Positions 2,471-24,413 of a DNA stretch of 25,252 bases are shown in pieces. The position numbers were made by a program, and so were the translations under genes. The notes under the pieces were generated by a model. It was not told the DNA's origin and ran no database searches. It saw only the letters and a program-made list of their open reading frames with translations. The stretch comes from a virus (Duplodnaviria; Heunggongvirae; Uroviricota; Caudoviricetes), in IMG/VR virus record IMGVR_UViG_3300037466_003153, positions 1-25,252 of that record. One strand, written 5' to 3'. Position 1 is the first letter of the stretch. Each line of letters starts with the position of its first letter.

Positions 2471-2835
2471 ACAAAGACCTAACCGACCAAGAACTTATCG
2501 AATTGGCTAAAAAAGCAAAGCCTGTTCCTGTTGAGGAAGATAAGCCTAAAAAGATGGGAGCACCAAAAAAGAAGCGTATCTTCTCTGCTCTATCCGATTT
2601 TATGGCAGCTACTGGTCTTAAACCAGGACGCAATGAAGCCGATAAAGTTTTAATTTATGAAGCATATTGTGAATGGGCAGATAATCCTGCTACTCGCAAT
2701 GCTTTCTATTTGGAAATGAATAAATATTTTAAAAAGTCAAGCGAACCTTATTATAAACTTAATATGATGCCCATCACATTGATGGAAATTGTAAAGGAAA
2801 TCAAAAATGGCAAAAACGAAACGTCAAAAAGCTAA
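2467..2835 (+). CDS. Putative DNA-binding protein (winged-helix-like C-terminal half)
   Basis: ATGA overlap with the upstream stop. Basic PKKMGAPKKKR patch. The segment LIYEAYCEWADNPATRNAFYLEMNKYF resembles the 'LY..Y..W....F...L...F' pattern of D5/phage-primase C-terminal winged helices. Confidence 0.55.
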   Translation: MNKDLTDQELIELAKKAKPVPVEEDKPKKMGAPKKKRIFSALSDFMAATGLKPGRNEADKVLIYEAYCEWADNPATRNAFYLEMNKYFKKSSEPYYKLNMMPITLMEIVKEIKNGKNETSKS

Positions 2836-8581: not shown

Positions 8582-10129
8582 TTATTCCCCAATTTTGATG
8601 CCTTTACCGACACCGTATAGATTTTGTAGAGCATTTAATTTTGCCAAGTTTTGTGCTGCAGTATCACTATTCATACCGCTTCCATTAAACAAATCAAATT
8701 TATAAAGATCTGGATTATAAAGATAATTTGTAAGTGGATTTGCCTGACTTTCATATGCTGCTTTTTGTGTTGCAACAGCTTGATTGTAAGCATCCGTATC
8801 AAAGTGTTTGAAGTTATCAAAAGCTCCAGCTTGTGATGGATCAGTTAAAAGTGTTGGATCAACATTAGCTAATTTTGATAGTGCTTGATAACGTGCATAA
8901 TCATCAGCGGAAGCAACGTTTTGTTTAGTTGCATCCAAATTACGTAAATAAGCATTTGTATCAACACCATAATTTTCAATGTCTCTAACACCAGGAACAT
9001 TTTGTAATGTTTTATATGCATTAGAAAATTCATCATTAAGTTGGTCCATAGAGAGCTGACCGCCAGCATTTGCAACATCTTTTAAGAACTTATCTTGAAA
9101 TGGTTGATTCCAAGCAGCTAACGCAGCTTGTGCTGAAGGTGAACCAGCATAAGCTTGACCATCATTCTTATAAACAGAGTCAGTATAAAGTCTTCCTGTA
9201 TCTGATGCTTGTAAACCTAATAATTTGGCATCATCAGCAGAAATTGTTCCATTTTTTAATTCACTAGCAAGACGTTGATTGAGTGCATTACCTTGATCAA
9301 CTTTAGCTTGAAGTGCTGCATCTTGGTCAGAGAAAGCTTTATTTAAAGCGCCTTGTGTTTGTTGCTTTGTATCAGCAGCTTCATTTTGATAGAGCTGAGC
9401 TTTTGCTTGAGCTTGGGTATTTGCTTGATTAACTGTATTTTGTGCTTGATTTCCAAGTACGCGAGCATTGTTAAGTTGTTTAACTTGATTTGGATCGTTT
9501 TGTAAGAATACGTTATCAAGTTTTTGTTGTCCTGCAGAATAGGTAGGACGATTGAACATTTGACGCAATGAATTAAAACGTCCTTGTTCTGTTCCAAGCT
9601 GAGAAGTTGTATCATTAATGTTCTGAGCTTGGACTTGAAGTTTTGGTGTGTCTTGAAGCTGAGTTGGTCCTTGATAAGAGGCATCTCTCATTTGATTGAA
9701 CTTGTTAACATCTTCTGTATTATTTACAGCAGTCGTTGCATTATTGATGGTGTTGTTAACAAAGTTTGCATCGTATTGACGACGATTTTGATCAGCTTGT
9801 GTATTAAAATTTTGTTGTGCAGTTTGAACGTTATTATTCAAATTCTGATTTTGTTGTTGAACGTTATTAACAATTTTACCACCAAGACCGGTGCCTTGAT
9901 TGAAGTTTTTGTTAGCATTCAAATAATTGGTAATGTTAGTGAAACGTCCAGAACTGGTGCCAGTAGGATTACCAGATTGTGTAGTTGAACTTCCAGAAGA
10001 CGCACCAATAGGTGCAGTGCTGTTACCCGCGTTCATAGTTGTGCCAGCAGAAACAGGTTGAGTAGAACCACTTTGATCTTGGTTCTGCTGATCTTTGTCT
10101 TTATCTGATGGATTATATACTACAGCCAC
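8582..10129 (-). CDS. Asn/Gln-rich virion protein, putative ejection protein
   Basis: 515 aa; GTG start with SD AGGAGA at 10135-10140; low-complexity N/Q/T composition; located between the tail genes and the other ejection genes. Confidence 0.65.
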   Translation of the reverse strand: MAVVYNPSDKDKDQQNQDQSGSTQPVSAGTTMNAGNSTAPIGASSGSSTTQSGNPTGTSSGRFTNITNYLNANKNFNQGTGLGGKIVNNVQQQNQNLNNNVQTAQQNFNTQADQNRRQYDANFVNNTINNATTAVNNTEDVNKFNQMRDASYQGPTQLQDTPKLQVQAQNINDTTSQLGTEQGRFNSLRQMFNRPTYSAGQQKLDNVFLQNDPNQVKQLNNARVLGNQAQNTVNQANTQAQAKAQLYQNEAADTKQQTQGALNKAFSDQDAALQAKVDQGNALNQRLASELKNGTISADDAKLLGLQASDTGRLYTDSVYKNDGQAYAGSPSAQAALAAWNQPFQDKFLKDVANAGGQLSMDQLNDEFSNAYKTLQNVPGVRDIENYGVDTNAYLRNLDATKQNVASADDYARYQALSKLANVDPTLLTDPSQAGAFDNFKHFDTDAYNQAVATQKAAYESQANPLTNYLYNPDLYKFDLFNGSGMNSDTAAQNLAKLNALQNLYGVGKGIKIGE

Positions 10130-10146
10130 ACTATTCTCCTATTATA

Positions 10147-10155
10147 AGTTGTTAA
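10147..10155 (-). promoter_or_regulatory. TTAACAACT motif, copy 6 (candidate late promoter)
   Basis: TTAACAACT-TATAAT-AGGAGA upstream of the 8582-10129 gene. The TAA stop of the upstream gene lies inside the motif. Confidence 0.65.
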
Positions 10156-10565
10156 CCTTTTGAGAGTACCGTCAATCTATATTTATTATTTGCTGGTAAT
10201 CCTGTAATATGGTTAACCGTAATAACTTGGTTATTCTGATCGAACGTAATAAAAGGCGCTCCAGTAGGATAAGTACTTGGATTTGTTAAATTAACTGCTC
10301 TTTCAACTGTAATGCCTCTAATTTTGCCAGTAAACGAAACTTTGAATTGAGTCGTGTTAATAGGAATTCCACTAGCATTAACGGTCACTTCAATGTCTTT
10401 GTATTCCATTTTCAAATTATCATCGACTGTGAAGTTCTTATTAAATGCGTTAATAACTTCTTCAGCAAAGATGTTAATAGACCCACCGATAGCATCAATA
10501 AGTTCTTGATCTTCGGCTTTGAAATTCTCTTTTACGATGCGCTTAAAGCTTTGTAATTTGGCCAT
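10152..10565 (-). CDS. Small tail-associated structural protein
   Basis: 137 aa, with a helical N-terminus and a beta-rich C-terminus; immediately follows the nozzle gene. Confidence 0.6.
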   Translation of the reverse strand: MAKLQSFKRIVKENFKAEDQELIDAIGGSINIFAEEVINAFNKNFTVDDNLKMEYKDIEVTVNASGIPINTTQFKVSFTGKIRGITVERAVNLTNPSTYPTGAPFITFDQNNQVITVNHITGLPANNKYRLTVLSKG

Positions 10566-10570
10566 AAACG

Positions 10571-13500
10571 TTACCTATAAGCTCTTGTGCTGGTAGGGTT
10601 ACTGGTTAGAGAAAGACCGTATATAGCGAAAGTCTCGCGTGCTGTACTGTGTTCGAAACGGCAATGGATGTATCTACAACGTTGTTTATTTCTAGGAATA
10701 TAAGTACGGATAGGAATGGAGTTACCTTCACCACCGTAGTTATTAGCTCCATATAAAGCATCGGCATAGCCGAAACTTCCATTACCACTTCCATTGAAGT
10801 TAATAACATCGAAACCTGGCTCTAAGTCACTAGCGTAAGCTACAGATGCTTCAGAGAAGTTGTTCTTATCGAAGATAATAGTAGCTTCTGACACCTGTTT
10901 CATCATAGATGGGTCACCAAATGTTTGAGGTGCCCATTGGACGATAGTATCGATGTGTTTATAAATAGTGAGTGGGCCTGGAACAAAAGGATACGCAAAC
11001 AAAGTTGTAACTTTATTTGTTGAAGTATCTACATCAGCAATCACAACTTCATAACTAGAAGTTCCTGTTGAAGTTAGATAGTTGAAGAATGATACTCCAG
11101 TGTCGGCATTAAGTTTATTAACAATGACATTGAAAGCACTTTGTTGATCGATTAGTGAAGTTGAATATCCTGAAATGGAAGAAAGATAATCACTATCGGC
11201 AACACCAGTGTCATTATCAAGTTTTGTTGCAAGATCATTTAATTTAGTTCTTAAATCATTACCTGCCATTGCTTGAAGAGTTGTAAAATAATCACTATCA
11301 TTAACACCAATGTCATTATCAAGTTTAATAAGTAATCTATTAAACTGAGCAATAGTGAGATATTGAGTTTGGATAATTACGTCACGAGCTTCAACGTTAT
11401 TGACAGTTGGGAAGCTAATGATTGTATCGTTAATACTATCTGGACCAATAGTTACACTAAATTCCCTATCAGCATAGTCTGTACGATCGAAAGATTTTCT
11501 TTCTTGTTCGATATAATTAACATCATTTGCTCCAAGATACATTTTATCATCAGCTGTATTAATTACTGCACAACTTACAGCTTTATCGATGTTTGTCCAA
11601 GAGTTGGTGAAAGTATTATAACGCAAACATTGAGTAGCTTTTGTGTCAGAAGGATTTGAAACAGTCCATAAATAATAACTACGGTCTGATTCATATGAAC
11701 ATCCAAAAGACGCAGTTTTGTAATTTGGATAAGTTGGCGTGTTAAGTTTCAATAAATCACCTTCGATTGGACGTGAAATAATTGAAACACCGGTGTCTGA
11801 AACAGTTGCAACACCTTGGTCAGATAGAAGATAGATTTGGTTGTTCAAAACAGCAGCAGAGTCTGGAGCTGTTAGAATTGTGGAGCTATCGAACAAGTTT
11901 AATACGAATGGAGCAACATCACCAGATACACGATAGATACCTTCTTCTTTGAAGACGAATAAGCTATCACGCAAAGCAACAATCCTTAGAATCTTTTTAT
12001 CACGAGGACCAACATCAAAGTAATTAAGTAGAGGAACTGCTTCAGGTTGATCTTTTTTTGAATAATAAATACGATTTGCAACTACTTCATTATCTGAAAT
12101 AACTGTGCTTCCAGAAGTAGGAAGAGTTGGTGAAAATTCTTGTCCTGTAGTTGTATTATTTACGGTAAAATGGAATGCATTATCAGCAAGCGACTTAGAT
12201 TCGAATAAGATAAGACCTGGGACATCAGTAGGTCCAGAAAGATAATAAGCATACACAATACCATTTGGATCAAGATTGATGACATGTACTAGAGATCTTG
12301 CAGTTTCATCAACTTGCTGAGCAGGAGTATCAAGTGTAGAAATAAGAACTTTTCTATTTACATCATCTTCTACGGTAGAAAAAGTGTAAGTTCTTGTTGT
12401 AGTTCCATTTGAAATGCTAAATGTGGAAGTATCGGCAACAAGATCAACTACAGATAACAAAGAAAGTTGTTTTCTTTGCTTTGTTTTGGTGTTGGCATAC
12501 ATTAAACAGTTTTTGAATAATGCAATATCTTTAGCAAAAGGAGGAACCTCATTAGCCTGAGCAATACCTTCACCGCTATTAGGATTGGTATAAAGATTTG
12601 CACCCCTAAAGCTATCTGGAGTAATATCTTGAACAGTGATAGATCCTGCGGTAATTTCTGATGAGGTAGGATTGTCTTCAAAAACAAGTCCCATTTCATC
12701 ACCTGGATCAAGATCAGATAAAGTACTTGCATCTGTACTTGTAGAAAGAGCAGTACGATATATTTGATAGAAGTGAGCAGTTGTAATATTTGAAGGAATT
12801 GTAAAACTTAAATTAACAGTAGCACTTTGTGTAGAACCGCTATTATTAAAAATTGTAGCGCTAGGTACAATTCCAGAAGGTTCAACTTGTAAATCCTCAA
12901 CAATAGCATCATAATATTCTTGCATACTGGTGAGTTCGCCAGAAGTTGGAACTTGTGAAAGTGCAACAGGTTGAGTAATGTTAGTATATTTTTTACGTGT
13001 AACAACACCTGCTGTATCTGCTGTAGGACCAGCATATGGGGAAGTAAAAGTACCAGCAAATGTAACGCTATCGTTTGTTAAGGTTGTAGTCGTAACCGAT
13101 AAAATTGTAAAAGTTCCATTTAGTTCAGTATCGCCAAGTCCAGAGATACTAATTTTATCACCAACTTGAAGGAAAGTAGAAACATTTTGATTGAATTGAA
13201 TTTTTGCACTACTAGTTGTCGGTTTGAAACGATTTGCTGTATTAATTGCACCTTCTGTAATAACTGTATCGTTATCAAGTTTTGTTGTTAATGCAATTAA
13301 GCTAGTTCTTAATGTGCTTGCTGGACTATTTACTGATACCGAAAGAGAAGAGTGATAATTTCCATCACTAATACCACCTGGAGTATTGACAGTATCAAGT
13401 AGGGTAAGTAAATTATTAAAATCTGTAATGAGGAGATCAGTGAGTGGATTTACAATAACAGCACGTTCACTAGGATATCCAAGGATAAGATTGTTATTTG

Positions 13501-14017
13501 CATCCTTAATACCCCAAACAATACGATAAGCAATAGTGCTTTCTTGTGAGAAAAATCCTGACTGACTATTTAAGGATAGTTTTGTATCAAGAGCTTTAAC
13601 TCCACCAGAGTTTGTTACTGTAGCACTTCCTAAAGTTGATGAATCGGAAGCTGAAATCTTTTTAATACCATCAGAAGTTGTGAAATAAAGATTACCATTG
13701 GCTTCAACGCCTTTAATTCTCAATCCATCTTGAGCTTCTGAATAAGTTCCTGAGAAAGAAGTGTATGTGCCGTTACCATCATCAAATTGAAGTGTATTTC
13801 CAAAATATCTAAGAATACGGTTTTTGTAGGTTAGGAGTTGTTTTGCATTGGATGTCATCACATCGCCATAGAGTTTAAATCCACGACGAGATTCAATTAC
13901 ACCATCCTTGTTAATAACAACATTATGAGCTTGTACTAAAGAACCTTGAGGTGCTTCAGAAAGAAGATTGGGATAGGTGTATAAACCCTTTGCTCTTAAA
14001 AGTACGTTTTGTGACAT
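10571..14017 (-). CDS. Tail nozzle / tubular protein B (P22 gp10 / T7 gp12-like) with inserted domains
   Basis: N-terminal KGLYTYPN...AHNVVINKDGVIESRRG, beta-propeller-type segments (IVALRDSLFVFKEEGIYRVSG, AAVLNNQIYLLSDQGV) and C-terminal RCRYIHCRFEH...IYGLSLT. Follows the adaptor gene. Confidence 0.75.
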   Translation of the reverse strand: MSQNVLLRAKGLYTYPNLLSEAPQGSLVQAHNVVINKDGVIESRRGFKLYGDVMTSNAKQLLTYKNRILRYFGNTLQFDDGNGTYTSFSGTYSEAQDGLRIKGVEANGNLYFTTSDGIKKISASDSSTLGSATVTNSGGVKALDTKLSLNSQSGFFSQESTIAYRIVWGIKDANNNLILGYPSERAVIVNPLTDLLITDFNNLLTLLDTVNTPGGISDGNYHSSLSVSVNSPASTLRTSLIALTTKLDNDTVITEGAINTANRFKPTTSSAKIQFNQNVSTFLQVGDKISISGLGDTELNGTFTILSVTTTTLTNDSVTFAGTFTSPYAGPTADTAGVVTRKKYTNITQPVALSQVPTSGELTSMQEYYDAIVEDLQVEPSGIVPSATIFNNSGSTQSATVNLSFTIPSNITTAHFYQIYRTALSTSTDASTLSDLDPGDEMGLVFEDNPTSSEITAGSITVQDITPDSFRGANLYTNPNSGEGIAQANEVPPFAKDIALFKNCLMYANTKTKQRKQLSLLSVVDLVADTSTFSISNGTTTRTYTFSTVEDDVNRKVLISTLDTPAQQVDETARSLVHVINLDPNGIVYAYYLSGPTDVPGLILFESKSLADNAFHFTVNNTTTGQEFSPTLPTSGSTVISDNEVVANRIYYSKKDQPEAVPLLNYFDVGPRDKKILRIVALRDSLFVFKEEGIYRVSGDVAPFVLNLFDSSTILTAPDSAAVLNNQIYLLSDQGVATVSDTGVSIISRPIEGDLLKLNTPTYPNYKTASFGCSYESDRSYYLWTVSNPSDTKATQCLRYNTFTNSWTNIDKAVSCAVINTADDKMYLGANDVNYIEQERKSFDRTDYADREFSVTIGPDSINDTIISFPTVNNVEARDVIIQTQYLTIAQFNRLLIKLDNDIGVNDSDYFTTLQAMAGNDLRTKLNDLATKLDNDTGVADSDYLSSISGYSTSLIDQQSAFNVIVNKLNADTGVSFFNYLTSTGTSSYEVVIADVDTSTNKVTTLFAYPFVPGPLTIYKHIDTIVQWAPQTFGDPSMMKQVSEATIIFDKNNFSEASVAYASDLEPGFDVINFNGSGNGSFGYADALYGANNYGGEGNSIPIRTYIPRNKQRCRYIHCRFEHSTARETFAIYGLSLTSNPTSTRAYR
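11093..11340 (-). repeat. Three ~34-36 aa coding repeats (KLDND-x-GV-x-DSDY) in the nozzle protein
   Basis: KLDNDIGVNDSDY, KLDNDTGVADSDY and KLNADTGVSFFNY. The DNA GTCATTATCAAGTTT recurs at a 102-nt spacing (about 11210 and 11312). A further KLDNDT lies near 13270. Confidence 0.7.
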
Positions 14018-14020
14018 AGA

Positions 14021-14986
14021 TTAAAACCATCTTCTTCGTCTCATGAGAGAACCATGTAAGAGTCCTCTACGGTTTACGATTTTTGTAGGACTTCCTTCGG
14101 CTCTATTATCGATAAGGCCAATGGTTTTTAATTCCATTTCTTGAAGCTTAGCATTTGCGTTTTGTAATCCTTGAGTGTCACCAAGAGCTTCTAAACAGCG
14201 AGCAGCAACACGTTGCGCTAACACTGCATGAAGATCAGAAGGACATTGAGGAATCATACATTCGCCAGCAAAAGCAATATGATCACCAATTTCAGTTTCA
14301 CTATCAACATCGCTGGTATTAAATGTAATTGTCTTATTAATTGTGTTTACATTTTGTGCAACAATATCAAAATTGCGAATCTTATGACCTGGTTTTGCTT
14401 GGAGTAAATCAAGGGTTGAAGTTCCAGCAATCATACCAGTTGGAACGCCATCTACAGTGTATGTAGTAGTTCCAGCAACGTCATCGGTTGTAATGTTAGT
14501 AATAATCGCAACTCTATTTTCAGCTACAAGATCGCTTGGTCTAAGATAATAGGTAACTACCAAAGATCCATTTACAGAAGGACCAACATCGGGAGTAAGG
14601 ACAATGTTATTTCCTTCGATGTAGTAGAAGAGATAATTACTGTTACCGCCAAATTGCTGATATAAAGACTTATCTTCAGGAAGAATTCTAGACATTTCTA
14701 CAAGATTACCATTGGTATCTTTATAAAAAAGATCTCTAATTTTACTTCCAACAGATCGATAAGGAATTTGGTATTTGGATTTATTTGCTTGTAAAGTAAT
14801 AGTTTGAGGATAAACATAAAATTCTTCGTGAAGTTGAAGAATAGAAGGTAACAATCCTATTTTTAATTCTTCGTTAGCAAACGCAAGAAAGTCTGCATCT
14901 GTAAAGGTGTTTTGATTCGAAGGAATCATTGCCTTACGTTTAATAGCAGAAATCAAACTATCGGAAGTCAAATATCCAACACTCAT
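14021..14986 (-). CDS. Head-tail adaptor / tail tubular protein A (P22 gp4 / T7 gp11-like)
   Basis: N-terminal LISAIKRKAMIPSNQNTFTDADFLAFANEE helical motif, Y-x-IP...VTYYLRPSDL and C-terminal IPQCPSDLHAVLAQRVAARCLEALGD helices. Lies directly upstream of the nozzle. Confidence 0.75.
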   Translation of the reverse strand: MSVGYLTSDSLISAIKRKAMIPSNQNTFTDADFLAFANEELKIGLLPSILQLHEEFYVYPQTITLQANKSKYQIPYRSVGSKIRDLFYKDTNGNLVEMSRILPEDKSLYQQFGGNSNYLFYYIEGNNIVLTPDVGPSVNGSLVVTYYLRPSDLVAENRVAIITNITTDDVAGTTTYTVDGVPTGMIAGTSTLDLLQAKPGHKIRNFDIVAQNVNTINKTITFNTSDVDSETEIGDHIAFAGECMIPQCPSDLHAVLAQRVAARCLEALGDTQGLQNANAKLQEMELKTIGLIDNRAEGSPTKIVNRRGLLHGSLMRRRRWF

Positions 14987-15011
14987 TTAATATCCTTTAA
15001 ATTGGAAGGAA

Positions 15012-15425
15012 TTACTTCATCAATTTCTTAGTAAGAGCTTCTTTCAATTCTTGAATTTTAGCTTCGATTTCTTCAGGTGACATATCTTCTGGATCTTTTT
15101 CTTCAGAATCGTCATCAGAACCCATATCAGCCATTGCGTCTTCGGCTTTTTCTTCTTCTGGAGATTCAGAAGCTTCTTCAGCATCAGATCCTTCTGGAGC
15201 TTTACCAGCTAGAAGTTCTTTAGCTTTGTCTAAACCTTCTTTAAGACCAGAAGTATCATCAGAAGCTACGGTAACTTTCTTGAGTCCGTGAAGGTCATTA
15301 CCCATCATTTTACCCATTTCACCGTGGAGATCTTGAAGAACTCCCATTTTTGCCTTTTTGTATTCAGGATCAAGAGCTTCGCCCTTTTTCTTAGCCATTA
15401 ATTTTGCGAGCATGTTACTATCCAT
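15012..15425 (-). CDS. Acidic hypothetical protein (possible internal head or assembly protein)
   Basis: 137 aa with a D/E-rich disordered middle (ESPEEEKAE) and C-terminal helix EEIEAKIQELKEAL; SD AGGAG. Confidence 0.7.
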   Translation of the reverse strand: MDSNMLAKLMAKKKGEALDPEYKKAKMGVLQDLHGEMGKMMGNDLHGLKKVTVASDDTSGLKEGLDKAKELLAGKAPEGSDAEEASESPEEEKAEDAMADMGSDDDSEEKDPEDMSPEEIEAKIQELKEALTKKLMK

Positions 15426-15446
15426 TTTAATTTTACTCCTATAATA

Positions 15447-15455
15447 AGTTGTTAA
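15447..15455 (-). promoter_or_regulatory. TTAACAACT motif, copy 5 (candidate late promoter)
   Basis: TTAACAACT-TATTAT-AGGAG upstream of 15425 and just downstream of a hairpin. Confidence 0.65.
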
Positions 15456-15474
15456 TTATCTTATGTTATTAAAT

Positions 15475-15501
15475 GGCTTCCCTCATTTTAAGAAGGAAGC
15501 C
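15475..15501 (-). terminator. Stem-loop after the second fibre gene (probable intrinsic terminator, weak U-tract)
   Basis: The - strand reads GGCTTCCTTC-TTAAAAT-GAGGGAAGCC (10 bp with one G-U pair), followed by ATTTAAT. Confidence 0.55.
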
Positions 15502-15521
15502 TTAAAGTTATTATCTTTCTA

Positions 15522-17453
15522 TTAGTTGCTGACCTTGGTGATTGAGAAAAACGAAGCGGTGTCAGTACTTGATGGGACTCCATCTGTATGTGCTCTAACA
15601 ACGTCGCCACTACGCAAGATAAGAGTTTTATTGAACTCGTTAAACGCGTTTACAGCTCCGAATTGACCTGATTGAGTCATGCCCCTATAACCAGCAGCAT
15701 AAGTTAAGGAGTCAATAGCAGTTGTTGGTGCTGTAGTACTTACCGAGATGCCGTGACGACCGGTTGTTCCGCTGCACCTGTCAACGTAAGAAATCGCATA
15801 AACGCCATCCTCATTGATTGTAAAAGAGCCGCCGAGAGTCGCGCTATCTGTGTATGTGATGGCCGTTCCGGTGTTCGCTTGTACAGTGGTAAATCTGCGA
15901 ATCTTTGTGTTCGTTGAACCGTAACCGTTAGGAGTATCTACATAGACCTCGCTTCTCGGCGCTTGAACCCCGACAGCCAAGGCGTTTTCGGAAACAGTTA
16001 CATCGAAATATGCGGAGCTTTGTCCACTAACTATGTCGTTTACACCGGCCTGATGGCCAGTAGTTCCGCTATAAAAACGGAATGGAGAAACGACAAGAAT
16101 GCCTGTGGTCGGGTCATAACTTGTGACGTAACCATAGTCTAAATTACCCGAGCCGCCTGTCTTTGGTGAAGCATCAAAATAGCCAGTTCTGCCACTCGTT
16201 CCGTACCAATCAACTCTTACGTTTTTATTTTTCCCTACAAAGATTTCATATCGAGTTGGGCTATTTGCCGTATCAGCCGATGAATACGCATTTCCTGCGT
16301 AAATCTTGATACCGTCCGATGCGGTCGGTGCGGTTGTTGGAGCGCCGCTTGTTTCGGTGAAAGTGTTCGCGTTCGCGTTTCTCAGGTAACTTCTATACTG
16401 CCCGAGCGCGGTCGGCGCAGTACCAGTGACCCTGCTCCCATTCGCCAAGTAGCTTGAGATGCGGAAGGTCGATGAGTTGGCCATGGTGACATTGGATGAC
16501 CAGCCTGCGATTGGCACCTTTGCCCACAACGAGATTGCCGACGATGAGCTAAAAATAGAAGTTGAAGTTTGTTCTGTTAAGTTATTAAGACTCGAACCGT
16601 TACCCACGCCGCCGAAACTCAGATTGCTCGTCTGTCCATTCGCAACGAAAACGTAAGTTGCATTGACGTTTCCAGAAGTCACTGTAACCGCATCGGTAGT
16701 ATGACCAACAATTGAGCCAGATGAGCTAAGTTTAGTTGTATCGAACAAATAAGGTGATGGAATACTTACGCGAGCAACTGATGCGGCGACCGAACCAGGC
16801 GTAAATGTTCCCATGATTTCCATGGTGTCGCCAACTTGTCGCCATTGGAAAAACACATTGGTTGGAGTTCCAAAGTTCGTAAACGTTGGGGTATATTGTT
16901 GCCAACCGCTCCCGGCCATTCCTTGAATTGCTTGTTGAGCAGAAACGCTAACATTATCTATTTTAATATTCGCAGTACTAGATACAGATTGATTGATTAT
17001 TAGTCTATAGGATGTGCTGTTAGAATTTGTAGGAAAAGTAGCTAAAAATGTTCCTTGTGAAACACTTGGAATTTGATAACCATAAGGTTGAATCATTTGG
17101 CTATTGGTTACATCATATACATAAACAGTATAGTCACCCGTAACCATAGTTCCAGAAGCGATAGCATAATCAAAGCTAATAGCTAATGTCTTCCCTTTAT
17201 CAGCAGCATCAATACTAAAATCGAAAGAAACGCCATTACCTAAAGCACCAGCTGTAATTAATCCAGACTTAGCTCCACGTAATGGAGAAGAAGTGGAAGC
17301 AGTTAATGTTAGAGTTGGACTACCACCTGTTCCATCTACAGGAGTTGCAGCACCATCTGCATACGTAGCATATCCAGTAGTGTCTACATCAAATGTACTA
17401 TTAGTTATGTAATTTTTAGCAGCGCTAGTAATTGTTAGATTAGTTAATGACAT
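15522..17453 (-). CDS. Tail fibre / receptor-binding protein 2 (C1q/BclA-like C-terminal domain)
   Basis: 643 aa, S/T/G-rich. KNYITNSTFD carbohydrate-binding-like jelly-roll, a WQQYTP beta module and C-terminal GSFTINEDGVYAISY...LILRSGDVVRAH...FSITKV. Paralogous to residues ~590-930 of the 1205-aa fibre. Confidence 0.75.
   Translation of the reverse strand: MSLTNLTITSAAKNYITNSTFDVDTTGYATYADGAATPVDGTGGSPTLTLTASTSSPLRGAKSGLITAGALGNGVSFDFSIDAADKGKTLAISFDYAIASGTMVTGDYTVYVYDVTNSQMIQPYGYQIPSVSQGTFLATFPTNSNSTSYRLIINQSVSSTANIKIDNVSVSAQQAIQGMAGSGWQQYTPTFTNFGTPTNVFFQWRQVGDTMEIMGTFTPGSVAASVARVSIPSPYLFDTTKLSSSGSIVGHTTDAVTVTSGNVNATYVFVANGQTSNLSFGGVGNGSSLNNLTEQTSTSIFSSSSAISLWAKVPIAGWSSNVTMANSSTFRISSYLANGSRVTGTAPTALGQYRSYLRNANANTFTETSGAPTTAPTASDGIKIYAGNAYSSADTANSPTRYEIFVGKNKNVRVDWYGTSGRTGYFDASPKTGGSGNLDYGYVTSYDPTTGILVVSPFRFYSGTTGHQAGVNDIVSGQSSAYFDVTVSENALAVGVQAPRSEVYVDTPNGYGSTNTKIRRFTTVQANTGTAITYTDSATLGGSFTINEDGVYAISYVDRCSGTTGRHGISVSTTAPTTAIDSLTYAAGYRGMTQSGQFGAVNAFNEFNKTLILRSGDVVRAHTDGVPSSTDTASFFSITKVSN
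16492..16514. repeat. 23-nt direct repeat, copy A (identical to 18351-18373)
   Basis: TTGGATGACCAGCCTGCGATTGG on the + strand; encodes PIAGWSSN in both fibre genes. Confidence 0.9.
16829..16847. repeat. 19-nt direct repeat, copy A (identical to 18673-18691)
   Basis: CGCCAACTTGTCGCCATTG on the + strand; encodes QWRQVG in both fibre genes. Confidence 0.9.
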
Positions 17454-17464
17454 AAATTATTCCT

Positions 17465-20400
17465 TTAGTTTCCGACTCGGTTGATGCAGAAATAGTTCGT
17501 GACACCTGCACCAAGTGCGACGCTAACTGATGCAACACCTTTGATAGCGATAGTGTCACCAGCGTTGCACGATATAAGACCGTTTACTGGGTAGCTGACG
17601 GCGGCGCTCGCAGCTCCAGGCGTTTCTTTTGCGTAAGTCAAAACAGCCACGCCATTTTGATAAACAGAAACATTTCGACTGACGACGCTCGTATTAGAGT
17701 CTGTGTAACAAAATGCAGCCGAAACATTATAAGTTCCGCTCGTCGGAATAGTGTAAACGCCGGTAGACGAATTGTAGGCGTTATGGGAGTCCTTTACCTT
17801 AGTTGAATATGCGATTTGAGTGAGAGAGGTTCCAACGGTTGTGCTGCTTCCGTTATATATAGCGACGATACTTTCACTCGCCGCGACGGTCGCAGGGCCT
17901 GACAAGCGCTCGAATGTGACCCAGTTGTCAGTAGCAGCGGCATCGAAGGTAATCGTTGAGCTTGTACTATTGCTGACATAAATCGCGAGCGTGTCGCCAG
18001 CTTTGCAATCAACAAGCGCCGAACCGTTAGCCATGATAGCCGAAGACGTTGAGCGAGTCTGGGCCTGTCCAAGCTGAGAATGTAATGCTCCGTTTTTGAA
18101 AAGATAGGCATAACACGCCTGCGATGCCGTTGTCCCGCTAGGAGTGAAAGTCAAAGCAGTTGAAACTCGATACTTACCGGTGACAGGTACCACATAAGCA
18201 TTAGAACTAGTTGAAAAAGCCGCGTGAGTGTCGAAGTCAACTGCGTTGAATGGAATAATTGATTGACCACTAGAACCAATAGTACCGGCTGCATTGTAAG
18301 TCGCACGTGCTGCACAGACGCGAGTATCACTATCTGCGCTCATCACTGTGTTGGATGACCAGCCTGCGATTGGTACCGAGAAGTTAATAGTTATAGTTTC
18401 GCCCGAACCAGCAATAGACGAGCCATTTGCCTTAGAAAGTGCTGAAACTGCAGAGCTTCCAAGGATACCAGGGTCAGAAAATGTAACGTAGCCTACGCTT
18501 GGCTCAATGAGAACAAGACCGCCGTGATTACCGGATGCGGCAGAGCGAGCGTAAATACCGCGATGAGAAAGCGTTGGAAGCGAAGAGTCGGATGTAACAC
18601 TCGGAAGCGAAATGCGCGCCTCGCTTGCTACCGTAGTACCCGTAACAATTGTTCCTTGGACTTCAACGGAACCGCCAACTTGTCGCCATTGAAGATTAGT
18701 AGTAGCGTTGCCCCATCCCGCTGTACTTGCTGGTGTATAAGATTTCCAATCGCTAATAGGAGGTCCATAAGCCAAGCTTTGTGGGCCAACATAGAAATCA
18801 TCTAGTAATAGTGTAACTGCTCCGCTTGTTGCATTAATATTTACCAACGCAATTTGAAACTGAGTCATGTTAGATGGAGTTTGGAATGTACCTTGAGCAA
18901 TTCCAACACCAGTGCTTTGGACTAAGTTGTAACAGCCAGTAGGTTGAATCCATGCTGAGTTTGTTACATCATAAATATATACAGCCCATGTATTGGATGA
19001 AGTTCCAGACATATTAACTGTTCCAGAAGCTACTTTATAAGCAAATTTGAAAGAGAGAACTTTTGCTTGATCTTCAATATCAATAGAAGTTGCTTGGCTA
19101 ACAAGCATATCACCGGCTGTTGTTGCAGCAGATGAAGCCATTTGCATTGAATAAGTTCCAGCTAGTTTTCCAGAAGAAACAGCACTAAGAGCTAATGTTC
19201 CAGCAGCAGAAGTCCAGCTACCTGCAGTTTGATTTGGAACTAAGCTAGAAAGAGTTGTATGATATAAACTCCAGCCAGTAGTTGCATTATTCTCAAAATT
19301 TCCATATGTAATGTAATTTTTTGGAGAAGGAGATGTATTAACTGTGATAGTTCCGAAATACCAAGCTTGGATATTAAGATTTGCAGCTAGAGCCTGATTT
19401 AGAGTTACTGTAGAGCCTGAAATAGTATAATCAGCAGAAGATCCTTGAGATAAAATTTTACCATCAACTGATAAGAAAAAAGCCGCAGCTGTAGTAACTG
19501 AAAATGGAAGTGTAATACTTGTTTGGCCAGCTGTAGAGCTTACAGGACCATAAGTATTAGAAATGGCTTGTCCTCCACCACTTGATGAAGGAGTGTTCCA
19601 CTTTAAACCAGAAGTTTGAGAACTATCTGCGGTTAGAACTTGTCCATCTGATCCAACGGGAAAACGAGCATTTCCTGTATCGTAAACGTATAAGTCGCCT
19701 TTTGTAGTAAGAGGTGATGCAGTTCCTGCAGCTCCCCAAGTACCATCAGCTTTAAGAACGCGTCCAGCAGCAGCATCTCCAGAAGCAGGAGCAGGAACTA
19801 ATCCTTTTGTTCCGCCTGATCCAGAGTCACCAACAAAAGCATTTAATTCGGCAGTGAGTTGTGTTGCAGTTAAGTCGGAAGGAGCAGCAGAAGATCCTGT
19901 GTTATTACCTTTGAAGGTATGAGCTGCCATATTAGCCATTTTGCTATTAGAAACAGCTCCAGCAGCAATGGTTGTTGACATTCCTGTAGAAGTAACATCA
20001 CCCGTTAAGTTTCCTGTAATACTTGCAGCAGTACCAGAAACATTTCCTGTAATATTTGCGGTAATTGTACCAGCTGAAAAGTTACCTGAAGCATCACGTT
20101 TAACAATTGTTGAAGAGGTGTTAGCATTTGTTGCTGCATTTGCGGCTTGTTCAGCGGTGTGAATATTTGCAGCAGAAGAACCGCCAACAGATGCAACTGT
20201 AGTTGACATTCCGGTAGAGGTTACATCGCCTGTTAAATTTCCAGTGATAGAAGCAGCACTGCCAGATACGTTACCAGTTAAATTTGCAGTGATAGTTCCA
20301 GCTGAGAAATTTCCAGAGGCATCGCGTTTAACGATAGCAGATGGAGTATTTACGTTTGTAGCAGAGAGAGTTCCTACTGTAGCTGTATGAATTTCAGAAG

Positions 20401-21082
20401 CAGTAGATGCTCCTACAAAATTAACAGTTACTGAAGCATTACCAGGACCAGTGGCACTTACGTCACCTGTGAGTCCAGTGATTGCACCGCCTGATAATGA
20501 ATTGATTTGATTTTGGATATTAGAAGTTGCACCAGAAAGATAACCAAGTTCTGTAGAAGTAACTGTTGAAGCTGAGACAACTCCTGAAGCATCAGAAACT
20601 AGAGCTTTTGAAGCAGTAAGAGCAGCAAGCTTACTATAAGCAATAGCAGCATTACTTGCGATATCTGCGTTAACAATAGATCCAGACAAGGCTAATTTTG
20701 AATAAGCAATAGCTGCAGAGCTAGCAATGTCAGAATCAACAACATTACCAGTAAGAGCTAATTTAGAATAAGCAATAGCAGCAGAAGCATTAATATCACT
20801 ATCAACGATGTTCCCAGTAAGAGCAAGTTTGCTATAAGCAATTGCAGCTCCTGCTTTAATACAAGAGTCAACAATGTTGGAAAGAGTGTTTACGTCAGCG
20901 CTAATTGTTTTATTAGTAAGTGTTGCTGTATGAGCTTCTGAAACTAATGGAGAAGCATCTGTACCATTATGGTAATTAAGCTTACCTCCAGAAACATCTA
21001 AATCGCCTGCTTCTGAAGCGGAAGACGAAGCTTCCTGTTTAATGTTTAAACCCTTGCGAAAACGTGTAAAATTATTAGCCAT
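17465..21082 (-). CDS. Long tail fibre protein 1 with shaft repeats and two C1q-like C-terminal domains
   Basis: 1205 aa. AAIAYSKL repeats, IVKRDASGNFSAGTIT repeats, the LTTKGDL...GQVLTADS motif, an Ig-like SVDGKIL...DYTISGSTVTL domain, a KNYITYGNFE jelly-roll, and two F/Y-x-VP-x-TG-x-Y ... C-x-AGD-x-I C1q-like domains. Confidence 0.85.
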   Translation of the reverse strand: MANNFTRFRKGLNIKQEASSSASEAGDLDVSGGKLNYHNGTDASPLVSEAHTATLTNKTISADVNTLSNIVDSCIKAGAAIAYSKLALTGNIVDSDINASAAIAYSKLALTGNVVDSDIASSAAIAYSKLALSGSIVNADIASNAAIAYSKLAALTASKALVSDASGVVSASTVTSTELGYLSGATSNIQNQINSLSGGAITGLTGDVSATGPGNASVTVNFVGASTASEIHTATVGTLSATNVNTPSAIVKRDASGNFSAGTITANLTGNVSGSAASITGNLTGDVTSTGMSTTVASVGGSSAANIHTAEQAANAATNANTSSTIVKRDASGNFSAGTITANITGNVSGTAASITGNLTGDVTSTGMSTTIAAGAVSNSKMANMAAHTFKGNNTGSSAAPSDLTATQLTAELNAFVGDSGSGGTKGLVPAPASGDAAAGRVLKADGTWGAAGTASPLTTKGDLYVYDTGNARFPVGSDGQVLTADSSQTSGLKWNTPSSSGGGQAISNTYGPVSSTAGQTSITLPFSVTTAAAFFLSVDGKILSQGSSADYTISGSTVTLNQALAANLNIQAWYFGTITVNTSPSPKNYITYGNFENNATTGWSLYHTTLSSLVPNQTAGSWTSAAGTLALSAVSSGKLAGTYSMQMASSAATTAGDMLVSQATSIDIEDQAKVLSFKFAYKVASGTVNMSGTSSNTWAVYIYDVTNSAWIQPTGCYNLVQSTGVGIAQGTFQTPSNMTQFQIALVNINATSGAVTLLLDDFYVGPQSLAYGPPISDWKSYTPASTAGWGNATTNLQWRQVGGSVEVQGTIVTGTTVASEARISLPSVTSDSSLPTLSHRGIYARSAASGNHGGLVLIEPSVGYVTFSDPGILGSSAVSALSKANGSSIAGSGETITINFSVPIAGWSSNTVMSADSDTRVCAARATYNAAGTIGSSGQSIIPFNAVDFDTHAAFSTSSNAYVVPVTGKYRVSTALTFTPSGTTASQACYAYLFKNGALHSQLGQAQTRSTSSAIMANGSALVDCKAGDTLAIYVSNSTSSTITFDAAATDNWVTFERLSGPATVAASESIVAIYNGSSTTVGTSLTQIAYSTKVKDSHNAYNSSTGVYTIPTSGTYNVSAAFCYTDSNTSVVSRNVSVYQNGVAVLTYAKETPGAASAAVSYPVNGLISCNAGDTIAIKGVASVSVALGAGVTNYFCINRVGN
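18351..18373. repeat. 23-nt direct repeat, copy B (identical to 16492-16514)
   Basis: TTGGATGACCAGCCTGCGATTGG. Confidence 0.9.
18673..18691. repeat. 19-nt direct repeat, copy B (identical to 16829-16847)
   Basis: CGCCAACTTGTCGCCATTG. Confidence 0.9.
19970..20370 (-). repeat. Tandem 228-nt (76-aa) coding duplication in the fibre shaft
   Basis: Two copies of ATNxNTxSxIVKRDASGNFSAGTITANxTGNVSGxAASITGNLTGDVTSTGMSTT. Matching DNA segments are offset by 228 nt (for example ~19986 and ~20214) and differ mostly at synonymous sites. Boundaries are approximate. Confidence 0.85.
20628..20850 (-). repeat. Four 66-nt (22-aa) coding repeats AAIAYSKLALxGxIVxxDI
   Basis: Visible in the translation; the DNA cores (ATAAGCAAT) are spaced 66 nt apart. 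Confidence 0.85.
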
Positions 21083-21095
21083 GTGGTATTTCCTA

Positions 21096-21569
21096 TTAAC
21101 CCTGTGTCATAGCGCGGGCTTTGAACTTAAGAAGTCCTGTGTAACTTGTTCCTGATAAATTTGTGGATGTGTATTTAAATTGACCGCTGTTAGAGCAAGT
21201 GAAAGTAATACCAGCATCACCAACACTGTATTGAGCAACTTCCCAAGTTCCTGCACCTGATTTATAGGTAACAAGCATCACACCACCTTCAGAAAGTTCA
21301 GTGTCAGATGTGGCTCTATAAATGCTATATTCGATAACTGCAGATCTAACTGCAGCTGGATCAAAAAGAAGACCAGTAACGTTTGTTTGGGAAGTAATGT
21401 TATTCGCAACAGCAAAGCTGGTTGTTAGAATATCACCAGTACTAATCGTATTATTAGCAACTGATACAAGAGCTTCGATAAGATCAGATAAACTCTCACC
21501 CCAAGGAGGACTATCTCCCTGTTGTGGTAAATTGTATGTTGTGCCATTAATAGTTACATTTTTAGCCAA
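21096..21569 (-). CDS. Small virion/tail protein
   Basis: 157 aa; TTG start with SD AGGAG. The N-terminal VTINGTTYNLPQQGDSPPWGESL resembles fibre-attachment-type N-termini; the C-terminus is beta-rich. Confidence 0.65.
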   Translation of the reverse strand: MAKNVTINGTTYNLPQQGDSPPWGESLSDLIEALVSVANNTISTGDILTTSFAVANNITSQTNVTGLLFDPAAVRSAVIEYSIYRATSDTELSEGGVMLVTYKSGAGTWEVAQYSVGDAGITFTCSNSGQFKYTSTNLSGTSYTGLLKFKARAMTQG

Positions 21570-21589
21570 AGTGAATCACTCCTATAAGA

Positions 21590-21598
21590 AGTTGTTAA
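21590..21598 (-). promoter_or_regulatory. TTAACAACT motif, copy 4 (candidate late promoter)
   Basis: TTAACAACT-TCTTAT-AGGAG upstream of 21569. Confidence 0.65.
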
Positions 21599-21602
21599 TT
21601 TC

Positions 21603-21631
21603 TTGAAGTTAGCTTATTAGTGTAGTAAAAT
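21603..21631 (+). promoter_or_regulatory. Candidate sigma70-type promoter for the antisense ORF at 21639
   Basis: TTGAAG (21603-21608), a 17-nt spacer, then TAAAAT (21626-21631). The ATG lies 8 nt downstream, with no clear SD. Confidence 0.5.
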
Positions 21632-21638
21632 ATAAAGA

Positions 21639-21866
21639 ATGGAAGTTATTACAATTTTGCTTGTATTTGCACTATTAGTTATTTCGTTGCTTCCAACGGA
21701 AGCGACTGAAATTATTGAGAAAAAAGAATGTAAACCACATAGATGGATTACAAAACCAAGTGGCATAGACCCTATTGAAGGTCAAGTTGGAGATAATAAC
21801 TATCTAGTGTGTGAAGAGTGTGGATTTCTTCCTGACTCGGACGCTTATGAGGAAGAAGAACGTTAA
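21639..21866 (+). CDS. Small membrane-anchored protein with a putative Zn ribbon
   Basis: Hydrophobic N-terminus VITILLVFALLVISLL, CKPH...CEEC and an acidic tail. It fills the gap exactly, and its stop overlaps the endolysin stop (TTAA at 21863-21866). Confidence 0.6.
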   Translation: MEVITILLVFALLVISLLPTEATEIIEKKECKPHRWITKPSGIDPIEGQVGDNNYLVCEECGFLPDSDAYEEEER

Positions 21867-22243
21867 GGAATGAAAACGTGCTTGCCAGATGCAGGAGCTA
21901 TGCACTGAAAGTGCACCCAATCTGGAGTGCTATCAAAGTCTTCGCAATATAGGCTAACTTCTTCTAAAATCTTAATATTAGCTTTAAGCCAAGCTTTTAA
22001 TTCACCATTAGGATCATGAATATCCACAGCAGCACCAATAAGATGTTTTGACTTAGGTGCTTTAGGATTTACTTTCATTTGATAAGCTAAATCTCTAACT
22101 CCGCTGGTAACAACCATAGGCTTACCATAACGTTCTCTAATAATAGAAACACGTTGGATAAGAATAGTTAGATTATTAACTTGTTCTTCAGTGAGAGTGT
22201 ATTTATGAGGATTTAGTTCTTCTATTGTGAAATAGAGCTTCAT
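21863..22243 (-). CDS. Endolysin, peptidase M15 family (Hedgehog/DD-peptidase Zn fold)
   Basis: VVTSGVR, SKHLIGAAVDI (H-x6-D Zn ligands) and distal WVHFQ; 126 aa, catalytic domain only, no signal peptide. Confidence 0.85.
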   Translation of the reverse strand: MKLYFTIEELNPHKYTLTEEQVNNLTILIQRVSIIRERYGKPMVVTSGVRDLAYQMKVNPKAPKSKHLIGAAVDIHDPNGELKAWLKANIKILEEVSLYCEDFDSTPDWVHFQCIAPASGKHVFIP

Positions 22244-22421
22244 ATAAAGAGTTGTTAATCTCTTTTTTAGCTAGTCTCCTAGCTCGCTTTTTAATTGATT
22301 TAGGATTAGGACCAAGCCATTCAGGAACTATTTCAGCATCACAACCCCAACACCAATAGCGACCACGAGTGGCACCATAAGGTAAGTGTTTAGGTTCTTT
22401 GTGTCCCTTTTTACAATTCAT
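22203..22421 (-). CDS. Small basic Cys/His-containing hypothetical protein
   Basis: 72 aa; CKKGH...YWCWGC; 1-nt overlap with the upstream gene and 41-nt overlap with the endolysin. Confidence 0.55.
   Translation of the reverse strand: MNCKKGHKEPKHLPYGATRGRYWCWGCDAEIVPEWLGPNPKSIKKRARRLAKKEINNSLYEALFHNRRTKSS
22250..22258 (-). promoter_or_regulatory. TTAACAACT motif, copy 3 (candidate late promoter, leaderless endolysin)
   Basis: TTAACAACT-CTTTAT-ATG. The endolysin start codon sits where AGGAG sits in three other copies. Confidence 0.65.
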
Positions 22422-22795
22422 TAGTGCATCGTATCGTTAATAGTTGGAAGATCGTCTAAAAGATCCTTATTATATTCTAATTCAAAATGAAGCTGAGCTT
22501 CTTCATTCCAATATAGGTTTCCATTTACACTACGATAGAAAGCTTCACCTAAAGCTACTGGAGCAATATGCATTAAGTTAATAATAAGATCGGCAACAAT
22601 GTAAGTTTGATGGAAGTCTAAAGCCAAACAAACTACAACACCATTAAATTGTTCTTCTTCAATAAGAAGGAAAGCAAACGGCTTTTCTGATTTATTAAGG
22701 CAAACTTCTAGAATATTTTCATCAACAAACGTTGTGAACATTTTCTGCTTTTTTAACATCTTCTCTGCTGCAACAAGGTATGTGTTCTTTTTCAT
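22421..22795 (-). CDS. Hypothetical protein
   Basis: 124-aa ORF with a plausible SD (AGGA) upstream; no recognised motif. Confidence 0.7.
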   Translation of the reverse strand: MKKNTYLVAAEKMLKKQKMFTTFVDENILEVCLNKSEKPFAFLLIEEEQFNGVVVCLALDFHQTYIVADLIINLMHIAPVALGEAFYRSVNGNLYWNEEAQLHFELEYNKDLLDDLPTINDTMH

Positions 22796-22837
22796 ACTAA
22801 TCCTGAAAATATTAGGTTCTATATTACTATTATACTA

Positions 22838-22846
22838 AGTTGTTAA
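22838..22846 (-). promoter_or_regulatory. TTAACAACT motif, copy 2 (candidate late promoter)
   Basis: TTAACAACT-TAGTAT-A, directly after the capsid terminator and upstream of 22795. Confidence 0.65.
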
Positions 22847-22854
22847 TCAAAGAT

Positions 22855-22890
22855 AAATAAAAAAGGGAACCAGATTTCTCCGGCTCCCTT
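22855..22890 (-). terminator. Intrinsic terminator after the major capsid gene
   Basis: The - strand reads AAGGGAGCCGG-AGAAAT-CTGGTTCCCTT (11 bp with two G-U pairs), followed by TTTTATTT. Confidence 0.8.
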
Positions 22891-22920
22891 AAATATTTCA
22901 GACCTCTAATTTAATAACTA

Positions 22921-24153
22921 TTAAGCAGAGTTTACGATACCGCTGATAAGAACGTTCTTACCAGGAGCTGAACAGAACAATGCTTGATCGGTGTAACAAC
23001 GGAGTTCGTAACCAGCGTTTGATTCCAACTCACGGAAGAATTCACCTTCCATTGCAGGACGCTTAAAGGTTACGTCGGTAGAACCAACGCGAGAGAACTC
23101 GTCCATTGCTAGAACATAGGCATAACCTTCTTTGCAATAGATGGTAGGTTCAATGCTGATGGTTCCGCTTTGTCCGTAGAACTTGATAGCTTTGTGACCA
23201 GCTTCAACTTGTGCTGAGCTGTAGGTGCTATCAATTTTACGAAGAGCAGTTTGTTCAACGAGCAAGTCGTTCCAAGTTGCAGGAGAAACGAGAACTGTTA
23301 CGTCACCGTCAAGTCCTTTAGCAACTGCTAGAGCAAGAGCGCGTTCAACTTTAGCGAGAGAAAGAGATGCTGATCCAGCTCCGTAAGTGTTACCTTTCCA
23401 GAGTGAATAAGAAGCAGCGGAAATATTGAAAAGTGTGCCAGTGTTAGTGATGATTTTGTGGATACCAGCAAACTCATTACCATTTGCACCTTTGTGGAAA
23501 ATAACGTCGGTAGCGACAACACCAGTAGCATCAGCTACAACGATTTGCTTGTTAGTAAGGCTAACAGAAGAAACAGTTGTAGAAACGCGAAGTGTAACGC
23601 CAGTAGCGTCATAAATATCGATTGGCATGTTTTCAGCGCCAGCCCAAATACCGCTTGCCCATTCAGCAGCTGCGATAGTAAGAGTAGTGCCAGCTACAGA
23701 ACCGACAGTTCCATAACCCATTTGACCATAGAGCATTTCGATTTCGAGCTTCTTGGTAATAGAACGAAGCATGTTAGCAACAAGAAACTTTGTTGCATCC
23801 ATGAATGCTTTATTTCCACCTTGAACAGCGCGAGAAGCAGAGACATAACCGAGAACTGAACGAAGTACGACTGGATTGCCGCGAACTTGAGCGTCCTTGA
23901 TTTGACCAGCAACTGGAGCATTCAATGCGAAAGCATCATCATCAGAAGCCGCGAAAGTAACACCGTGTTCATGTCCGAGAATAACTGGTTGGTGATACAA
24001 GTTACCTGGTTGTTTGTCTTTAGACATGAAAGAAATCATTTTATAGAGCTTAACGCCATCTGGAATTAGATTTTGAAGCTTATCTGCATAAGTTTCTTTA
24101 AAAAGGCCGTTAAGTGTACCTGCGAAATTGTTTGAACCTGCCATTGCTGACAT
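22921..24153 (-). CDS. Major capsid protein (HK97-fold expected)
   Basis: 410 aa between the scaffold gene and a strong terminator; strong SD AGGAGA 8 nt before the ATG; codon usage skewed to highly-expressed-type codons; N-terminal LNGLFKETYADKLQNLIP and E-loop-like YHQPVILGHEHGVTF. Confidence 0.8.
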   Translation of the reverse strand: MSAMAGSNNFAGTLNGLFKETYADKLQNLIPDGVKLYKMISFMSKDKQPGNLYHQPVILGHEHGVTFAASDDDAFALNAPVAGQIKDAQVRGNPVVLRSVLGYVSASRAVQGGNKAFMDATKFLVANMLRSITKKLEIEMLYGQMGYGTVGSVAGTTLTIAAAEWASGIWAGAENMPIDIYDATGVTLRVSTTVSSVSLTNKQIVVADATGVVATDVIFHKGANGNEFAGIHKIITNTGTLFNISAASYSLWKGNTYGAGSASLSLAKVERALALAVAKGLDGDVTVLVSPATWNDLLVEQTALRKIDSTYSSAQVEAGHKAIKFYGQSGTISIEPTIYCKEGYAYVLAMDEFSRVGSTDVTFKRPAMEGEFFRELESNAGYELRCYTDQALFCSAPGKNVLISGIVNSA

Positions 24154-24329
24154 ATTATTTATCTCCTAGATAATGTTATTATTTAAAAATTTATTAGTTT
24201 GTTATCGTCGGGTTTTACTGTGTTCCGAGGATACCTTTCACTATCTAAGAGACTTGGGTATGCCAGTAAGCAATCCTCTCTTAAAAAGGAGAAGGGCCTG
24301 ATTAGGGACCACTAAACCTATCTAAAAAG

Positions 24330-24338
24330 AGTTGTTAA
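24330..24338 (-). promoter_or_regulatory. TTAACAACT motif, copy 1 (candidate late promoter of the capsid gene)
   Basis: TTAACAACT-CTTTTT-A, between the scaffold terminator and the ~170-nt capsid leader. Confidence 0.65.
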
Positions 24339-24376: not shown

Positions 24377-24413
24377 AATAAAAAAGGGGCTGAGTTAATA
24401 AACCCAACCCCTT
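24377..24413 (-). terminator. Intrinsic terminator after the scaffold gene
   Basis: The - strand reads AAGGGGTTGGGTT-TATT-AACTCAGCCCCTT (13 bp with two G-U pairs), followed by TTTTATT. Confidence 0.8.

Follow-up and report, generated by a model that had tools for sequence, protein, structure and literature searches.

In phage T4, late promoters (TATAAATA) are recognized by gp55 together with gp33 and the gp45 clamp, and they are also found before homing-endonuclease genes. The middle and late promoters of phiEco32 (Kuravirus) are read by the phage sigma factor gp36 and consist of a single element, AATGTA, centred at -11.5, with no -35 consensus (PMC12276001). A late promoter made of one element, as in these two phages, is a familiar kind of phage control; what is new in the phage described here is the consensus. 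The analysed stretch of DNA (hereafter the window) comprises the first 25,252 bases of IMG/VR record IMGVR_UViG_3300037466_003153, a complete 89,252-bp viral genome of the Caudoviricetes with direct terminal repeats and 37% G+C. It carries repeated copies of the 9-mer TTAACAACT, which, together with the six A/T-rich bases and the purine that follow, probably forms a compact single-element promoter for late genes, used by a specificity factor that would redirect the host core polymerase.

A preliminary description, made from the letters of the window alone, had listed six copies of the 9-mer on the minus strand and none on the plus strand, and an exact scan returned the same six. It had also put the chance expectation well below one copy per strand; dinucleotide-preserving shuffles of the window gave a mean of 0.60 copies and a maximum of 3. 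When the scan was extended to the whole genome, as that description had proposed, 11 copies were found against 2.2 expected, and 60 Markov simulations never gave more than 6; the accompanying search for one-mismatch variants returned sites that had no strand or position bias and were not obviously functional. Ten of the 11 copies were located on the minus strand and span 10155 to 34268, which is exactly the extent of the minus-strand gene block encoding the large terminase, an SU10/P22-like portal, the capsid protein, fibres and an endolysin. These ten copies head genes of the packaging, head, tail and lysis block. All 11 copies share an extended form, namely TTAACAACT, then T/C-W-K-T-W-T and then a purine, and those in the window have the spacers read earlier by eye (CTTTTT, TAGTAT, CTTTAT, TCTTAT, TATTAT and TATAAT) with a constant A at the seventh base. 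Upstream of the 9-mer the information content was about zero, both for the 11 genomic copies and for 177 unique copies from relatives, so no conserved -35 element accompanies the motif, as had been supposed. The motif sites did not show the canonical sigma70 arrangement, in which a -10 hexamer is preceded at 16-18 bp by a conserved -35 hexamer; a single chance match, ATAACA-17-TATTAT, overlaps the 15455 copy. A TTAACAnTGTTAA palindrome was considered as an operator and rejected as non-recurrent, and Rfam gave no match over the whole genome.

To place the motif in a wider context, 71 related viral contigs (up to 96 kb, 1.1 Mb in total) were retrieved by their capsid proteins, which were 41-79% identical. 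As a result, 226 copies of TTAACAACT were counted on the strand of the capsid gene versus 6 on the other strand. Among 20 whole related records, 18 contained 5-18 copies each with a strong one-strand preference, whereas two lineages differed. At the same syntenic positions, record G006 (contigs L096-L100) carried TTAACATTT and record G020 (L009) carried TTAACAAGT, and a third variant, TTAACAAT(A/T), was found in L039. The TTAACA core was constant across these words and the last three bases were variable. One syntenic copy precedes the capsid gene by 130-170 nucleotides (nt), another stands immediately behind that gene, and a third comes before the preceding gene of 322 amino acids (aa); all are in spacers that have otherwise diverged. 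Furthermore, in five complete genomes only 5 of 62 sites fell inside the bodies of open reading frames (ORFs) of at least 100 aa, compared with 68% expected (P ~1e-22), and 56 of the 62 had a same-strand ORF start within 400 nt. The 9-mer is therefore far from equally frequent inside genes and on the other strand, a possibility that the preliminary description had raised as counting against a promoter. A megablast search for a close cultured relative gave no match, and tblastn returned matches of 19-30% only, with the capsid and portal matching a Silvanigrella phage and other genes matching phages of Arthrobacter and Salinibacter.

The sequence downstream of the motif points to the position at which transcription would begin. 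In the relatives, the 9-mer is followed by six A/T-rich positions, at which C and G together make up less than about 15%; of 215 unique copies, 180 have a purine at offset 15 and only one has C. About 30 of these 215 copies have an ATG at offset 14-17 with which a real ORF of 47-287 aa begins, without a Shine-Dalgarno sequence; such a gene could be translated only if the mRNA begins at that ATG, which argues for leaderless mRNAs. In this genome, three copies run directly into AGGAG followed by a TTG, GTG or ATG start. A transcription start further downstream would remove the ribosome-binding site of a non-ATG start codon, so these copies also place the start about 6-7 nt past the 9-mer. A start at the seventh base after the 9-mer, as proposed in the preliminary description, is thus well supported by comparative evidence, with 24323, 22831, 22243, 21583, 15440 and 10140 as the best estimates in the window. 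Otherwise the motif stands anywhere between 0 and about 190 nt from the start codon, which indicates that the motif is not tied to translation. As in -10-only late promoters, a short element about 6-7 nt before the predicted start is repeated before late genes. The 9-mer would accordingly occupy about -15 to -7 and the A/T-rich hexamer the melted stretch from -6 to -1, with transcription beginning at the purine and yielding mRNAs that either start with a Shine-Dalgarno sequence or are leaderless.

The six copies in the window, all on the minus strand, fit this geometry. The first (24330..24338, exact match) has its predicted start at the A at 24323 and is followed by a leader of about 170 nt to the major capsid gene (22921-24153). 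It comes after an intrinsic terminator at 24384-24413 on the same strand (13-bp stem with a U-run, z -4.4), and its equivalent in relatives lies 130-170 nt upstream of the capsid gene. The second (22838..22846, exact match; predicted start 22831) heads the ORF at 22421-22795 just after the capsid gene; it follows another minus-strand terminator at 22863-22890 (12-bp stem with a U-run, z -5.4), and the relatives have an equivalent just past the capsid stop codon. For the third (22250..22258), the predicted start falls at 22243, on the first base of the endolysin ATG, as had been noticed from the sequence; the endolysin-like ORF that it opens (21863-22243) matches endolysin phrog_894 (E 9e-16) and would be expressed from a leaderless mRNA. 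The remaining three have their predicted starts at the first base of AGGAG, and this fusion was likewise verified at 21598, 15455 and 10155. The fourth copy (21590..21598; start 21583) heads the ORF at 21096-21569, which has a TTG start and belongs to a family conserved in five of five genomes. The fifth (15447..15455; start 15440) heads the ORF at 15012-15425 and the downstream tail genes, and the sixth (10147..10155; start 10140) heads the ORF at 8582-10129, which has a GTG start and belongs to a fibre/spike-like family. The preliminary description had placed terminator-like hairpins before three copies. Those before the first and second are canonical, whereas the third, a minus-strand 10-bp hairpin at 15475-15501 preceding the fifth copy, is stable (-18.1 kcal/mol, z -4.7) with a weak U-tract only and was not called in the terminator scan. 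Two copies directly after strong terminators argue for re-initiation at a promoter and against an RNA-processing site. The capsid leader itself (24154-24323, minus strand) is unusually long, and a leader of 130-170 nt is kept at the same place in relatives, which hints at a conserved function of this 5' untranslated region.

The copy at 34268, the first of the minus-strand block, is located at the divergence point of two gene blocks, about 20 nt from an opposite-facing sigma70-like TTGATG-N17-TAAAAT that heads the plus-strand block. The two promoters would thus stand back to back within about 60 bp (genome 34230-34320; L001:9230-9320), and several relatives have back-to-back divergent pairs of the motif at the block junction. 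No upstream same-strand RNA is possible at such a junction, which disfavours a reading of the motif as an RNA-processing site. Other early intergenic regions contain ordinary-looking TTGAC-N17-TAnnnT promoters, so the 9-mer would mark a separate, second class of promoter.

What was observed directly is the motif itself, its preference for one strand and for certain positions, its conservation, and its spacing from start codons. Taken together, the strand specificity, the intergenic placement, the synteny, the leaderless ATGs, the fused Shine-Dalgarno sequences and the copies that follow terminators or stand at a divergent junction argue for the late promoter that the preliminary description had proposed, and the lineage variants TTAACATTT, TTAACAAGT and TTAACAAT at equivalent positions point the same way. 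On this view the motif would work at the DNA level, as a promoter, and a specificity factor that the phage supplies or induces would redirect the core RNA polymerase of the host to it. In this phage and its uncultured relatives, TTAACAACT would then drive the late genes for packaging, head, tail and lysis as well as some late-expressed accessory genes. Some points weigh against this interpretation. The base at -11 of the implied -10 element would be C, not the A typical of -10 elements of the sigma70 family; no reader was found, nor any conserved early protein resembling a sigma factor or polymerase; and the only sigma-like gene of the genome is absent from relatives with the same motif.

That gene is the obvious candidate for the reader. 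It is located outside the window at 43505-43963 on the plus strand, in the early block behind a sigma70-like promoter, and encodes a 152-aa mini-sigma resembling extracytoplasmic function (ECF) sigma factors. The protein matches TIGR02937 (E 1.8e-7, 26.7 bits) and Sigma70_r4 (E 1.5e-5, 21.7 bits), both below the curated cut-offs, as well as phrog_1740, and no match to Sigma70_r2 was obtained. Two helical domains are seen in its AlphaFold2 model (predicted local distance difference test score 88.8), and the best-ranked Foldseek matches were all ECF sigmas (prob 1.0, E 3e-3). A specific reading of the motif by this protein is further favoured by three short contigs that encode members of its family (L103, L106 and L109) and also carry TTAACAACT. 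The family has about 300 environmental members, and a profile of 60 of its sequences found the protein in this genome at E 1.8e-53 but none in the 20 related records, 18 of which are rich in the exact 9-mer and 10 of which are at least 90% complete. Searches of the relatives with the protein itself, TIGR02937, Sigma70_r4, a local hidden Markov model and hhalign were also negative, although a very divergent sigma could escape them. The 10 near-complete relatives lack the mini-sigma, and in nine of them no sigma-family protein was detected, with only a resolvase helix-turn-helix match in the tenth; nine of the 10 keep the exact TTAACAACT and G006 has a variant. A match from the sigma search in G018 proved to be the helix-turn-helix of a resolvase, G020 carries an ECF sigma of its own that is unrelated to the mini-sigma, and single proteins of the mini-sigma family gave no match in IMG/VR. 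In addition, ECF sigmas normally read bipartite -35/-10 promoters, whereas the motif is one contiguous element. By these comparisons, the mini-sigma cannot be the shared reader of the motif, and sigma genes are sporadic accessories in this phage family. That the motif is read specifically by the mini-sigma is consequently doubtful; it may serve the sub-lineage of this genome, as the short syntenic contigs carrying both suggest, and is a candidate only there. The prediction of a phage-encoded reader outside the window therefore held in part: an ECF-like sigma gene exists, but complete relatives using the same 9-mer do not have it, and no phage RNA polymerase gene was found.

Other proteins were considered as readers. 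PF00940, for a T7-like polymerase, had no match in the genome, although the control was equally silent. All early-block ORFs of at least 300 aa were assigned otherwise (family B DNA polymerase, primase-helicase, ribonucleotide reductase, NAMPT-like enzyme, RtcB, RNA ligase and others), and no gene for a phage single-subunit RNA polymerase, as required by T7-like promoters, was detected among them. The large late proteins (1148-1672 aa) lack the two-barrel motif DxDGD and were rejected as polymerases. The conserved non-structural core consists of a polymerase, an exonuclease, a primase-helicase, a PD-(D/E)XK nuclease, Erf, a subtilase, an HNH endonuclease and a few small unassigned proteins, none of which was sigma-like by Pfam, PHROGs, PDB profiles, ESM Atlas or predicted fold. 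Five smaller families were also rejected: a 138-aa family is a spanin-like membrane protein; a 122-227-aa family has a tandem Pox_D5/RFX-like winged helix and is late-expressed in G018; an acidic 128-171-aa family has a three-helix fold with no sigma-like match; a 236-aa family is not sigma-like; and a 168-201-aa family upstream of the late block is GIY-YIG-like by eye and absent from this genome. The winged-helix family is present in five of five genomes, and its member in the window (2467-2835, plus strand) has 122 aa versus 186-227 aa in relatives, with the second domain missing. Possibly, and we propose it only tentatively, the 9-mer is read by a specificity factor, or a small protein redirecting the polymerase, of no recognisable sigma or RNA polymerase family among the few conserved unassigned phage proteins. 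If so, promoters would be recognised here by a protein of a new class, and it would explain how nine near-complete genomes keep the exact word and a tenth a variant, yet have no detectable sigma.

Alternatively, the motif could be read by an alternative sigma encoded by the host, with the phages having no reader of their own. In favour of this idea, the exact 9-mer is retained by phages that share only about 50% identity in their capsid proteins, and no conserved phage candidate was found. However, the lineage variants in the last three bases are more typical of co-evolving readers encoded by phages, and the motif is not known to fit any bacterial sigma consensus, so a host sigma is an unlikely reader.

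Another possibility is that the A/T-rich hexamer is an ordinary sigma70 -10 element and that TTAACAACT is the site of a phage activator replacing the -35 contact, which would shift the start to offset ~21, about 7 nt downstream. Several hexamers here read TATTAT, TATAAT, TAGTAT or TCTTAT (often TAnnnT), and the tandem winged-helix (Pox_D5/RFX-like) protein conserved in five of five genomes is a DNA-binding protein that might serve as such an activator. Nevertheless, a start at offset ~21 would delete the AGGAG before the TTG, GTG and ATG starts at 21598, 10155 and 15455 and the ATG of about 30 leaderless ORFs, the hexamer in relatives is merely A/T-rich, and the winged-helix gene in G018 is itself inside a motif-driven late operon, all of which makes this arrangement very unlikely. 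Least probable of all is a role of the word in RNA, where an endoribonuclease would process a long late transcript at it or a translational regulator would use it as an operator: it is strictly strand-specific and near ribosome-binding sites in several copies, but its distance to the start codon varies widely, copies stand at divergent junctions, where no upstream same-strand transcript can exist, and directly after terminators, and no conserved structure accompanies it, with Rfam again negative.

Some further features are associated with the motif. In relatives, it also heads mobile-looking genes inside the replication block, often leaderless, which include a GIY-YIG/NUMOD gene, an endonuclease VII gene and multi-copy families without assignment (L081:14731-15351, minus strand; L093:7099-7683, L092:3597-4238 and L083:14573-15226, all plus strand). 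The sole plus-strand copy in this genome heads an ORF-free stretch of about 1.1 kb (genome 48558-49675; L002:4558-5675, plus strand). The sigma-bearing contigs L103, L106 and L109 show partial conservation of its initial ~170 nt and of a block further along, and Rfam gave no match to it; the stretch may correspond to a non-coding RNA expressed late or to a region of the origin type. At genome 37246-37319 (L001:12246-12319, plus strand), ARAGORN calls a tRNA with the anticodon UCA, labelled SeC, which may be of the opal-suppressor type. The late genes are open in the standard code.

A literature search for TTAACAACT returned only unrelated primers, so the consensus is undescribed in the searched literature, in line with the earlier impression that it was not known from a described phage. 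The analysis provides a testable promoter map with six predicted starts in the window and eleven in the genome, and a consensus that holds across a large family of uncultured phages of ~85-95 kb that have no cultured relative. Since the mini-sigma, the obvious candidate, does not travel with the motif, the identity of the protein that reads TTAACAACT becomes a defined question. Once the reader is known, so short a promoter, joined directly to a leaderless ATG or a ribosome-binding site, could also be useful as a compact expression signal.

Among known systems, T7-type promoters share with the motif a contiguous block, a short A/T-rich melting stretch and a purine start that often enters a GGAG-like sequence, and TTAACAACT presumably resembles the T7-type ...ACGACTCACTATAG; they differ in that no polymerase gene was found here. 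The T4 late promoters have a different sequence, no homologue of gp55, gp33 or the clamp was detected in this phage, and no sigma-like fold was obtained for the small conserved proteins encoded in the replication module. They are nevertheless similar in being -10-only elements of 8-9 bp that end about 6-7 nt before the start and are scattered through the late region, and the motif of this family likewise stands in front of homing-endonuclease-type genes. With respect to phiEco32, the consensus TTAACAACT is different, no gene-level relationship with cultured kuraviruses was detectable, and neither a gp36-like sigma conserved in the family nor a gp79-like partner was found; the portal here has weak SU10/P22-type Pfam matches. 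The predicted layout, however, is the same as in phiEco32: a single element around -10 without a -35 stands before the middle and late genes, while the early genes rely on host sigma70 promoters.

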